Below are positions 1,153 through 5,790 of a stretch of 64,000 nucleotides of DNA, one piece after another. This DNA is from Cyanobacteriota bacterium (lineage in GTDB: Bacteria > Cyanobacteriota > Cyanobacteriia > PCC-6307 > Cyanobiaceae): NCBI GenBank assembly GCA_046309395.1, contig JBKCPG010000120.1:10-64009 (forward strand). Direction: 5' to 3'. The translations under genes were made by a program, and so were the position numbers. Numbering within the stretch: the stretch's first letter is position 1; each line of letters opens with the position of its first letter. The notes under the pieces are model-generated. The model saw nothing but the letters and a program-made list of their open reading frames with translations, had not been told where the DNA came from and ran no database searches.

Positions 1153-4100
1153 TCAGGCGACCTGGAAATCCAGGCCAACCCTCAACACGCCGATCCCGAG
1201 CCGGAAGGGTAAGGGGGCACCGGCCGACACGAAATCCACCGTGTGGCTCCGGGCGGCGATCAGCACCACGTCTGGGGCGGGTGCGCGCAACACCGTCTCG
1301 TATCCCTCCTCCCGCCCTAGCGGACGCAGGGGCTTGCCGGCTGGATCCACCAGGAACAGCCGCAGCCGCTCCAGATGGGCCACAAACGGCAACGCCTCCA
1401 CCGCCGCCACCAGATCGAGGGCCCGCACTTCGCCGCCTAATCGCACCTCCGCGGCGGCGTCAAAACACCAAGGCGATAGCACCCGAATCACCGCCCGCTC
1501 CAACTCCCGCTCGGCATACGCCGGATCCACTCCCTCCCGCCGGCACACCCACAACCGCGCTGTCACATGCATGTAGGTGGCATTGCGCACCACCGGCGCC
1601 CCTTCGGCCGGGCATCGCGCCCGCAGATAGCCCTCCATCGCCGCCAGCTGGTCGGTCGGCGCCCCGGGGGCGAACAGGTTGCGGGGCACCTGCTCCAGCA
1701 GGTTGGGAATCACCACCACCTCCACTCCCCGCCCCTCTCGCGCCGGCAGGCACACCACCGTATGCAACTGACTGGCGAACCCCTCCCAGAGCAACCGCTC
1801 GTAGTCCCTCGGGGCCAAGGCCCGGCCCTTGTGCCGTAGGTGCTCTGCCGCCCGGATCCGCAGCTCCGCCTCCGTTTCGGTGGCCCGCCCCGCCCGGGAG
1901 CTGAAGGGTTGATGGAGTCCCGCGATCCCCGGAACGCTCTCCTCTAGCCCTGTGATGCCATGGGGCGGGAGCACCTCTTGGCCGCTGGGCGTGATGGCCT
2001 CAGCCTCCACCGCCTGAGCCTGGATGGCCAGGATCGTGGCATGGGCCTCCACGGGTCCCATCAGCACCGCCCGAATCCAGAGTGGATCCGCGTCCGACGC
2101 GGACTCCCCATCGGCCTCCGGCACCACCACACGCACGATGCCGGAATGGAGCAGACCGTCGGTGCCGTCCTCTCGCACCGGCAATGGCCGCCAGCGCCAA
2201 TTCCGCCGCGCTTCCCAGCGCGGCGCTTCCTTCGGTCGAGCCCCCCGGGCGCTTCCCTCCGCCAGTTGAAAGGCCAGCGCCAGCGGTTGACCGGCACGGA
2301 TGTTCTCCAGTTCCAGCCACAACTCGCCGGGATGGGGATGGCTGGCCAGCAGCGGGGGGGCTTCCGCCTCCACCCGGTCTCCGCCCGGAGGGGGGAGGAC
2401 GAGCGGTTCTTCCTCCCCGAACAAGTGCACCCGTAGCAGCTGGCCTCCACCAGTTTCAGCGGTGCTCAGGCGCTGAACTCGGCGGTAGCCCACCTCCAGG
2501 CCCCCCAACAGTGGGGTGTAGGGCTCTGGCAACACATAGTCGTCTGGGTTGATGTCCGCGGCTTTGGCCGCCTTTAGCGCATTCTTGTAGCTCTCTTCCA
2601 GGCTGCCCATGGTGTCGGTTGGTTTCGCGCCGCTCAACGTGTGTGCCATCGCCAGGGCTTGGCGTCCCGCCAGGTCGCTGATCGCCAGCGCGAACGCCTG
2701 GGCCTTGCGAGCTGTGAGAGCTGGATACAGCCCATGGCCGAAATCGGTGGGGGCCAGCCGCCAACACCACATCCGCCCCTGATTTCGCCCATCCCCATTT
2801 CCCTCCGCCGTGAGGGTGGGCCCGGGCGCCAGTGGCGGGAGCGGGTCGCAGGTGATCTCCAGTCTCCCGTTCCCGTCCCCCGCGAACAACCGCGCCGACT
2901 TGCTGAACACCTCGGCACCATGGCGCTCCCGCAAGCTCACGTCGATCAAGAAGTCGCTCTCCCTCACCCGGGCATCCCTCCCCAGACCGGGCCAGCCCTG
3001 GTAGGCCGCGTAGTGCTTCGCCAGATCCGCCGGCGGCTTCACCCATTCCCCGGTGAACCGGATTGACTCCAGGTCGCCCTCCAGCAGCGCTGGATGGCTG
3101 ATGTACAAGTGGTTGCCGACCTCAGGCTTGGCCCCGAACGGGTGGAAGGGCTCACGGGGATTCACCGCCACGCCCTCCCGCTGAAGCCGCACCCCCTTGA
3201 GCCCCTCCACCCTCACCCGCAACTCGGCGCTGGCCACCCGCGGCCCGTCGAAGCCGCGCCATGGATCTTCGCCAGGCCACAGGGGGTTTCGGGGGCGCAA
3301 CCGCATCCGCAGTCGCGGCGTGTCGGACCCCTCCAGCGGCGCGAGCGGCGGATCGCTGGCCCGCAGCACCACCCGCAGAGTGAGCCTCCAGAGGGCGGGT
3401 TTGGAAGACTCCACGGCTCCCACGCTCCCCTTCGCCAGCGGCACCGCCAGCCAGCCCTCCGCCGTGCTCACCTCCACCAGCAGCGCCTGGTTCAATCCCC
3501 ACCCCGGTTGATCGGGCTCCCGGGGCGGCTCTCCGGCGCAGTCGTCGGCCCGCGCCGTCCCCCCGTCCCTGCCCCGCAGGCTCCCGAGCAGCCCATCCCG
3601 CGTGCCCTCCTCCGCGAGGAAACTGAGGCTCACCTCCAGGGTGCGGGTTCCCTCCTCCAGTCGCAGCAGTGGGCTCGCCACCGCAAAGCCGCCACCAGCC
3701 TCCGGGTCGGGAGGCTCCACCGCCGGGTCGGTCCAGAAGCACGGCGCCAGGGTTTGGCCCGCCGCCATCGCCTTGGCGTCGATCCGTTGCTCCCCTCGGT
3801 GCCATTGGCGCCAGCGCACCGTTTCGAGCGGCGGCGGCGTCTCGCCGCTTTCCGCTCGCTGAGCCCGCTCCAGCAGGGCATCCACCGCCGCCCAGCTGAG
3901 CGGCCGCGGCTCCGTGCCCGGGGCCCTCAACAGCTTCCCAAAGCGCTGGAGCGCCTGCAGTCCGCCCTCTGGTAGCCAGCGGCTGAGCAGTCTCAAACAG
4001 TCGTCGACCGAACGGGAGCCATCCAAGGGCCACTCCTCTTCGCCGACCTCCATGGCGCTCGCCACCCCCCTCAGGGTTTCGGCGAAGCCCGCCTCCGGGC

Positions 4101-5790: not shown

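Follow-up and report, generated by a model that had tools for sequence, protein, structure and literature searches.

In this study, a stretch of 64,000 nucleotides from contig JBKCPG010000120.1 of a Cyanobacteriota bacterium (called the window in the following) was analyzed with respect to one gene of a contractile injection system (CIS), the cis11/afp11-like gene encoding a baseplate wedge protein of 1545 amino acids (aa). Between two conserved Cis11 blocks, this protein carries a genuine domain insertion, which consists of four diverged copies of a helical unit of about 45 residues. According to structure prediction, the insertion is an all-alpha domain of about 430 residues set into a beta-hairpin, and the modelled fold has no known match in the PDB or BFVD. 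Profile alignments place the domain as an additional module immediately N-terminal of a cage-homologous segment, at the junction of domains III and IV, and profile searches together with a tree mark it as the hallmark of a large Cis11 clade across several phyla.

The window protein is a Cis11/Afp11 (T4 gp6-like) baseplate wedge protein. Comparison with the chains of the PDB by phmmer gave Alg11 of AlgoCIS (7aeb_G, 1050 aa) as best match with an E-value (E) of 8e-59, followed by All3317, the Cis11 of the thylakoid-anchored CIS (tCIS; 7b5h_AH, 1231 aa, E 1.8e-40), Afp11 (6rao_I, 607 aa, E 4e-28), a PlPVC1 homolog (9qgl_A, 905 aa, E 1.5e-27), Pvc11 (6j0n_J, 728 aa, E 9e-23), and SalCis11 (9rce_A, 1323 aa, E 9e-17). 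The homology to the solved Cis11/Afp11 proteins was found in separate N-terminal and C-terminal blocks. Also, a Foldseek search with an AlphaFold2 (AF2) model of aa 100-1090 yielded 7b5h_AH (E 8e-9) on top, 7aeb_G (1.7e-8), and 9qgl_A (1e-6), and no other significant match. No match to Pfam, including Baseplate_J, was obtained at E <= 0.01, and NCBIfam TIGR02243 reached 57.5 bits, under its cut-off of 155.8 and over aa 1282-1479 only; the protein is thus too divergent or too long for these family models. A preliminary description of the gene, made from the sequence alone, had already taken the product for an Afp11-like baseplate protein and had given the Afp11 proteins of PVC and Afp as about half as long, with only a short segment at the insertion site. 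Both statements agree with the lengths and homologies given above.

The limits of the insertion were set by two blocks, aa 113-217 and about 691-724, which match neighboring blocks in the solved homologs in phmmer and profile alignments. The first block is common to all six of them (e.g., Alg11 112-216, All3317 243-349, Afp11 83-177, Pvc11 79-181), while the second, near aa 700, bears the motif G(F/W)A(V/I)(A/S)S.LL.L.EG.R. No match to these six homologs was detected for aa 1-112. Between the two blocks, the window protein has 473 residues (aa 218-690) as compared to at most about 58 in the six solved homologs (about 58 in Alg11, 55 in SalCis11, 45 in All3317, and 37 in PlPVC1), which leaves a net surplus of about 415-430 aa. 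The insertion had been located before at nt 3783-5139, and this interval does correspond to aa 218-670 of one 1545-aa open reading frame (ORF); by homology, however, the insertion extends about 20 codons further, to around aa 690 (nt 3721). All ten sequence motifs quoted at that time, among them HGRVRRLRAI (aa 205-214) and FAVASPLL (aa 702-709), had been placed correctly, but the second repeat tryptophan is residue 415 and not 416. An intein or another selfish insertion was ruled out, as the region has no Pfam match, its distribution follows the Cis11 tree, and its GC content is like that of the gene.

The four-fold repeat was only marginally visible in the single sequence and became clear with family profiles. 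Smith-Waterman comparison of the single sequence against shuffles resulted in z-scores of 4.5 for units 1 and 3 and 2.9 for units 3 and 4, while the other four pairs were not significant. With sub-alignments of the units from 39 mostly cyanobacterial homologs, hhalign brought four pairs into register (E 2.5e-5 to 1.2e-3). For the main test, hhalign was applied to unit profiles built from 28 sequences from several phyla, and here all six unit pairs were found in register, with E-values of 2.3e-21 (units 1 and 2), 4.3e-7 (1 and 3), 6.9e-6 (1 and 4), 2.8e-8 (2 and 3), 4.6e-5 (2 and 4), and 1.4e-9 (3 and 4). The corresponding scores were 26-101 versus column-shuffle means of about 9 (standard deviation about 2; 12.5 for units 2 and 4), and for units 2 and 4 one outlier shuffle scored above the observed value. 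A hidden Markov model (HMM) of 45 residues, built from all units, detected exactly four copies in 30 Cis11 proteins and two copies in Nostoc-type proteins, with zero matches in the non-Cis11 ORFs of 82 loci. The similarity of four helical units, which had been suspected before, is thereby confirmed.

The units follow the consensus ..L..edF..LM.l........dW..In.lLe.Ag+.+ with a near-invariant tryptophan. Three of the tryptophans (W313, W415, W633) are invariant across the 28 sequences, and the fourth, W533, is present in at least 90%. Units 1 and 2 have further features in common, namely a tail of the form P..(R)DF..NL..ALG and, behind the tryptophan helix, a basic loop. These Arg/Lys-rich loops read RCGRRRRKRPSWRL in the window protein and AGQRKR or AGRSKRG in distant homologs.

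For structure prediction, aa 215-700 were modelled by AF2 with 12 sequences, resulting in a mean predicted local distance difference test score (pLDDT) of 82.6 and a predicted template modelling score (pTM) of 0.78. The model is compact and consists of helices except for two strands, aa 216-222 and 656-662, which must pair with each other since the model contains no other strands. The same helices and strands were obtained for aa 100-1090 with a pLDDT of 72.7 and a pTM of 0.45, i.e. with low inter-domain confidence; the modest pLDDT is ascribed to the fact that only 10 sequences were used for folding. In both models, units 1, 3, and 4 are helix-loop-helix structures, in line with the helix-turn-helix architecture proposed before, while unit 2 is one continuous helix and departs from it.

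With the combination of AlphaFold and Foldseek on the insertion, as proposed before, no significant structural neighbor was found: in the PDB the best E-value was 0.44, in BFVD 0.61, and the TM-scores were about 0.1. The profile of the insertion had no match among the sequences of PDB chains or in NCBIfam, and a Pfam search with 12 sequences gave nothing significant (best E of a single member 0.0066, no family common to more than one member). Known alpha-helical repeat families (TPR, Sel1, HEAT, ARM, PPR, and others) were tried as candidates and rejected, as neither a profile match nor a solenoid-fold match was obtained. In the literature searched, with subscription-only papers outside the scope, the helical domain, its site, its clade, and CIS from these taxa are undescribed.

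The relation of the insertion to the spike cage can be derived from the segment that follows it. In AlgoCIS, the spike cage is formed by domain IV of Alg11, residues 278-643 (PMC8894135). In the profile of the window protein family, the stretch of positions 593-834 corresponds to Alg11 278-490 with E 1.9e-26 and to All3317 432-732 with E 4.8e-23, and aa 700-1075 (approximately) are beta-rich in the AF2 model. Alignment and model thus point to this segment as the real equivalent of Alg11 domain IV. The first conserved residues behind the insertion correspond to Alg11 residue 278, which puts the insertion at the junction of domain III and the spike cage. The earlier idea that the insertion itself is a counterpart of the AlgoCIS cage therefore had to be given up: an Alg11-type spike cage was ruled out for the insertion, which is predicted to be all-alpha and aligns to no PDB chain, while the cage homology lies in a separate segment.

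Alignment with the solved homologs, including Pvc11, Alg11, and other Cis11 proteins, showed that the insertion is absent from all of them. Alg11 (AlgoCIS, 7AEB chain G, PMC8894135) resembles the window protein in the blocks flanking the insertion, in cage domain IV, and in gene context; however, it lacks a four-repeat helical module in its 1050 aa and its own extra mass is the beta-sandwich cage, which is similar to carbohydrate-binding modules. All3317 of the Anabaena tCIS (7B5H, PMC8894136) is also a Cis11 from a cyanobacterium and has extra domains, one of them a cage, and the gene order cis11, cis13, cis12 is alike. None of its extra sequence is present at this site, though; of its three extra domains, at least the cage and the C-terminal extension map to other places in the alignment with the window protein. 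Afp11 (6RAO) and Pvc11 (6J0N) have the N-terminal block (aa 113-217) in common with the window protein, as well as the C-terminal gp6/J-like domains, but lack both the helical insertion and the cage domain.

Among the solved Cis11 proteins, an added alpha-helical module near the cage has been described only for SalCis11 of Salmonella enterica subsp. salamae (9RCE chain A, PMC13266070). This module comprises seven helices at residues 419-549 (131 residues) and was described as a hydrophilic extension of domain IV (PMC13266070). It is set in behind the first strand of domain IV (at profile positions of about 628-664), whereas the insertion of the window protein precedes domain IV; the SalCis11 blocks 209-315 and about 338-401 flank the site in question, and its helices follow further downstream, between 401 and 566. 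Also, its 131 residues contrast with about 430 here, and no four-fold tryptophan repeat was described for it. That the insertion is a helical extension of the SalCis11 type was therefore ruled out by the insertion point and by missing sequence similarity to 9rce_A. This distinction was made by sequence and site, as 9rce appeared in neither of the two PDB fold search results (Foldseek library of 2026-04-08).

A related but shorter variant was found in the Cis11 encoded on a plasmid of Nostoc linckia NIES-25 (locus L056), which has 260 aa at the same site, between blocks aligning to Alg11 residues 226 and 280. Its two units are related to units 3 and 4, and the protein belongs to a different clade closer to Alg11 and All3317.

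The distribution of the insertion was determined by an exhaustive HMM search of the insertion profile against 1.84 billion cluster representatives, which returned 245 clusters (50% identity) at E <= 1e-3 and 181 at E <= 1e-10. In the full-length proteins among the 150 best matches listed, the insertion was always located at about aa 200-700 of a protein of 1340-1809 aa. A known and widespread Afp11 domain had been named as the finding that would speak against an added domain; the domain is indeed widespread, but it is not a known one.

In addition, loci among GTDB species representatives were gathered with the full-length alignment as query. The full module was found in Synechococcaceae and Cyanobium, in Myxococcota (Sorangium cellulosum So0157-2 with its complete genome, Plesiocystis pacifica SIR-1, Nannocystaceae), in Accumulibacter and other Betaproteobacteria, in Methylobacter and Methylococcaceae, in Thiothrix and Bradyrhizobium aeschynomenes, and also in Acidobacteriaceae, Anaerolineales, Oscillochloris, Desulfobulbaceae, and one metagenome-assembled genome (MAG) of Saprospiraceae. 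The two-unit version occurs at the same site in Nostoc, Coleofasciculus, Lyngbya, Moorena, and Leptothoe. The insertion is missing in short Cis11 proteins with 1018-1063 aa and in several with about 1200-1330 aa, which stem mostly from Bacteroidota and Gammaproteobacteria. In a neighbor-joining tree of the C-terminal domain, the proteins with full insertion formed one large clade with a Saprospiraceae protein as the lone exception, and the two-unit proteins formed a separate clade. Apparent exceptions within the full-insertion clade turned out to be genes cut by contig ends.

Two side observations concern the variability of the gene. Cluster P0045 contains a variant of 1809 aa in which the insertion profile extends over residues 220-874 (about 655 aa), so that the module is expanded further in some lineages, either by extra units or by longer linkers. 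In several species representatives (L032, L040, L042, L077), the cis11 frame is broken into two parts, either inside the insertion or shortly behind it, which could be due to frameshifts, assembly errors, or pseudogenes.

The insertion shows an identity of 24% between the window protein and distant homologs and of 31% among distant pairs, the cage-like domain 28% and 35%, respectively. Being about as conserved as the cage-like segment, the insertion is more in keeping with a role inside the complex than with variable target recognition. It is acidic (isoelectric point about 5) with a negative net charge in 25 of the 28 homologs including the window protein, and no hydrophobic segment was found in aa 200-700, where the highest 19-residue Kyte-Doolittle mean is 1.0 (an analysis of hydropathy only, not of amphipathic helices). 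Both properties argue against a transmembrane anchor. The anchoring function considered in the preliminary description thus gained no direct support, and a membrane anchor of the type of tCIS Cis13 or SalCis20 was rejected for the insertion, given the lack of a transmembrane segment and its acidic character.

A possible function can be outlined with the help of the published AlgoCIS structure. Upon firing of AlgoCIS, domain IV tilts by about 27 degrees, thereby opening the cage, the lumen of which is 18-56 Å wide and filled by the spike (PMC8894135). With one insertion per wedge, six helical modules of about 50 kDa each would be located at the wedge-cage hinge, and as the published lumen is too narrow for them, they should lie outside the cage. 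There, the six modules might form an outer helical collar adding subunit-subunit contacts and possibly touching Cis12 or the fiber, so that it could also offer a docking surface. Such a collar would brace the closed cage before firing and, as the cage opens, would need to follow domain IV in its outward swing; contacts to an acidic partner surface might be provided by the conserved basic loops behind units 1 and 2. From the sequence position, we give about even chances to the insertion being an outer helical collar or brace at the wedge-cage hinge, or a docking scaffold. The further-reaching proposal, that a new domain family builds an outer collar with six-fold symmetry, or a second layer of the cage, gating cage opening and defines a multi-phylum CIS lineage with distinct architecture, is a tentative one which may well prove too strong.

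Several points weigh against such a collar. The position of the insertion relative to the cage, Cis12, and the neighboring wedges was deduced from the sequence register and published text, the model comprising aa 100-1090 has low inter-domain confidence (pTM 0.45), and protomer-protomer contacts of the insertion are inferred only. Furthermore, no insertion-specific co-occurring partner emerged when the fiber gene, the 63-aa ORF, PAAR, and the length of Cis12 were examined. Finally, the baseplates of tCIS and AlgoCIS work without the module, which makes it an accessory one.

Alternatively, the insertion might mainly bind the trimeric fiber at the Cis13 position or the very long Cis12, which we regard as rather unlikely. 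In nearly all insertion-bearing loci having downstream sequence, a gene with a conserved N-terminal domain of about 115 aa directly follows cis11, and the Cis12 of this cluster has 1736 aa. There is also precedent for such contacts, since in tCIS the C-terminal extension of Cis11 touches Cis13 and another extra domain touches Cis12 (PMC8894136), the cage periphery was described as a hotspot for fiber and anchor attachment (PMC8894135), and SalCis11 with its helical extension was predicted to associate with SalCis13 (PMC13266070). However, the same fiber N-terminal domain is encoded in the two-unit clade as well, and a few loci lacking the insertion (L046, L069, L080) also have it, so that its co-occurrence does not tie the fiber to the insertion. 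Besides, the tCIS fiber binds the C-terminal extension and not the insertion site (PMC8894136), and within the full-insertion clade the length of Cis12 varies from about 670 to 1870 aa with no parallel change of the insertion.

The conserved Arg/Lys-rich loops after the tryptophan helices of units 1 and 2 could also serve a peripheral tether to the thylakoid or cytoplasmic membrane, or a lattice contact between particles, in analogy to cyanobacterial tCIS and to type VI secretion systems of subtype iv (T6SSiv), which are membrane-anchored via baseplate additions (PMC8894136, PMC8894135). The low hydropathy and the predominantly negative net charge described above make this improbable, as do the phyla without thylakoids within the clade. 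In addition, the fiber-like neighbor is beta-rich and shows no transmembrane-like stretch as judged by eye, and is thus unlike the Cis13 anchor of tCIS.

Helical repeats commonly bind proteins. The insertion might accordingly provide a surface for recognizing a receptor of the target cell or for holding effectors near the spike, all the more as the module would be exposed at the distal end of the particle, the site of first target contact. For the cage itself, a function as receptor or effector compartment was proposed (PMC8894136, PMC8894135). We consider such a surface to have little probability, because receptor-binding parts are usually the most variable ones, whereas the insertion is conserved about like the cage-like domain and the variable element in these loci is the C-terminus of the fiber; also, no effector gene was identified beside cis11. 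Chance resemblance of helices or an assembly or fusion artefact, as the mostly non-significant single-sequence scores might suggest, has a negligible probability in view of profile-profile E-values down to 2e-21, exactly four unit matches in 30 independent proteins, and the same uninterrupted architecture in hundreds of clusters including the complete genome of S. cellulosum So0157-2.

The coordinates of the domains and of the surrounding genes in the window are listed in Table 1.

Table 1. Domains of the window protein and genes of the CIS cluster (positions in the window; domain assignments follow from alignments and predicted structures)
Feature	Position	Strand	Remarks
cis11/afp11-like gene	1153..5790	(-)	gp6-like baseplate wedge protein, 1545 aa; directly after gp25
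N-terminal region, aa 1-217	5140..5790	(-)	aa 113-217 conserved Cis11 block
Insertion, aa 218-690	3721..5139	(-)	predicted beta-hairpin stalk, all-alpha four-repeat domain (about aa 223-655), return segment
Repeat unit 1, aa 288-326	4813..4929	(-)	unit HMM E 1.4e-8; W313 invariant
Repeat unit 2, aa 399-442	4465..4596	(-)	unit HMM E 1.6e-11; W415 invariant; conserved basic loop GRRRRKR
Repeat unit 3, aa 506-549	4144..4275	(-)	unit HMM E 9e-5; W533
Repeat unit 4, aa 613-648	3847..3954	(-)	unit HMM E 6e-5; W633 invariant
Cage-homologous region, aa 701-1075	2566..3690	(-)	profile alignment to Alg11 domain IV
C-terminal gp6/J-like domains, aa 1076-1545	1156..2565	(-)	Alg11 568-1033, E 3.6e-33; Afp11 343-581
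Cis13-position tail-fiber-like gene, 5' part	1..1097	(-)	runs off window; 520 aa in L001 (14694-16256)
gp25-like sheath initiator gene (Cis9)	5794-6216	(-)	Pfam GPW_gp25, E 1e-16; immediately upstream of cis11
63-aa ORF	~6213-6404	(-)	between PAAR and gp25; L001 9387-9578
PAAR gene	6427-6726	(-)	
VgrG gene	6731-8713	(-)	
CIS_tube protein gene	8578-9312	(-)	
DUF5908 plug gene	~9326-9469	(-)	
gp19-type tube genes (n = 3)	~9468-10873	(-)	between sheath and plug
Sheath gene	10932-12461	(-)	
Pvc16_N cap gene	12483-13175	(-)	

Genes beyond the left end of the window were read from L001, a metagenomic contig encoding a protein 99% identical to the window protein. The order of the complete cluster is sheath, tubes, DUF5908, CIS_tube, VgrG, PAAR, gp25, cis11, fiber-like gene, Cis12 homolog, and CIS_TMP, as past cis11 L001 encodes a 520-aa fiber-like protein, a 1736-aa Cis12 homolog, and then the CIS tape-measure protein. 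Concerning the origin of the cluster, close homologs of the window protein are annotated as belonging to MAGs of Cyanobacteriota or Synechococcaceae, and among species representatives Synechococcaceae and Cyanobium come nearest. The CIS is that of a picocyanobacterium of the Synechococcaceae type. No AAA+ ATPase gene (Cis15/Afp15) was found beside the cluster (window 12483-16134; L001 1-3307), nor a gene for a Cis19-like crown in these regions, the latter being a difference from tCIS. L001 stops about 1.5 kb past the tape-measure gene, and the far side is outside of this coverage.

The N-terminus of the 1736-aa protein matches Alg12, All3315, SalCis12, Afp12, and Pvc12. With its length (L001 16420-21630), it is nearly twice as long as Afp12 and Pvc12 (about 950-963 aa); the match to solved Cis12 proteins is confined to the first 100 residues or so, and the further domains are uncharacterized.

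The fiber-like protein contains repeated G(I/L)GT motifs, and it has a weak match to the Bdellovibrio fiber protein bd2133 (8ond, E 1e-3). Its N-terminal part of about 115 aa is kept beside cis11 in most related loci, while the C-terminus is variable; in some loci (e.g. L006), two or three fiber-like paralogs are arranged in tandem. The Anabaena gene at this position, all3316, encodes Cis13, a trimeric fiber-like protein on the C-terminal extension of Cis11 (PMC8894136).

The 63-aa ORF overlaps the start of gp25 by 4 nt and has no match in Pfam or NCBIfam. Homologs at the same position were detected mainly in loci of the full-insertion clade, with the detection being unreliable for such a short protein. 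It may encode a small lineage-specific component of the baseplate or spike.

Upstream of the cap gene, genes for a DnaJ-domain protein, a rubrerythrin, and a GNAT acetyltransferase are located. Further on, at 24000-32000 of the window, the GC content falls from about 0.66 to about 0.50, and the genes found there encode a pyruvyl transferase, two family-2 glycosyltransferases, an epimerase, an FAD oxidoreductase, and a sugar-isomerase-like TIM barrel. This region is probably a horizontally acquired surface-polysaccharide island.

In the solved CIS baseplates (AFP, PVC, AlgoCIS, tCIS, SalCIS), additions to Cis11 and Cis12 decide on the location and the contacts of the machine; such additions are the cage, the crown, membrane connectors, and fiber sites. 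Extra domains of Cis11 are thus a known theme, while this domain, its site, and its clade are new to the literature searched. The insertion represents a third addition site on Cis11, which would amount to about 50 kDa per wedge and about 300 kDa per particle. Since the cage equivalent is a separate segment, particles of this clade are expected to have an extra layer in addition to the cage. The carriers include ecologically important organisms such as freshwater picocyanobacteria, myxobacterial predators, the polyphosphate accumulator Accumulibacter, and methanotrophs, and among those that are cultivable or have complete genomes are S. cellulosum So0157-2, P. pacifica SIR-1, and B. aeschynomenes 83002. 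For sorting CIS clusters, the 45-residue tryptophan unit HMM is a simple marker. If the insertion indeed defines a multi-phylum lineage, comprising picocyanobacteria, myxobacteria, Accumulibacter, methanotrophs, Bradyrhizobium, Chloroflexota, and Acidobacteriota, its architecture and possibly its mode of action would be unlike those of extracellular CIS (eCIS), T6SSiv, tCIS, and cytoplasmic CIS, and if the module gates or braces cage opening, this would bear on the question of how the firing of CIS is triggered.

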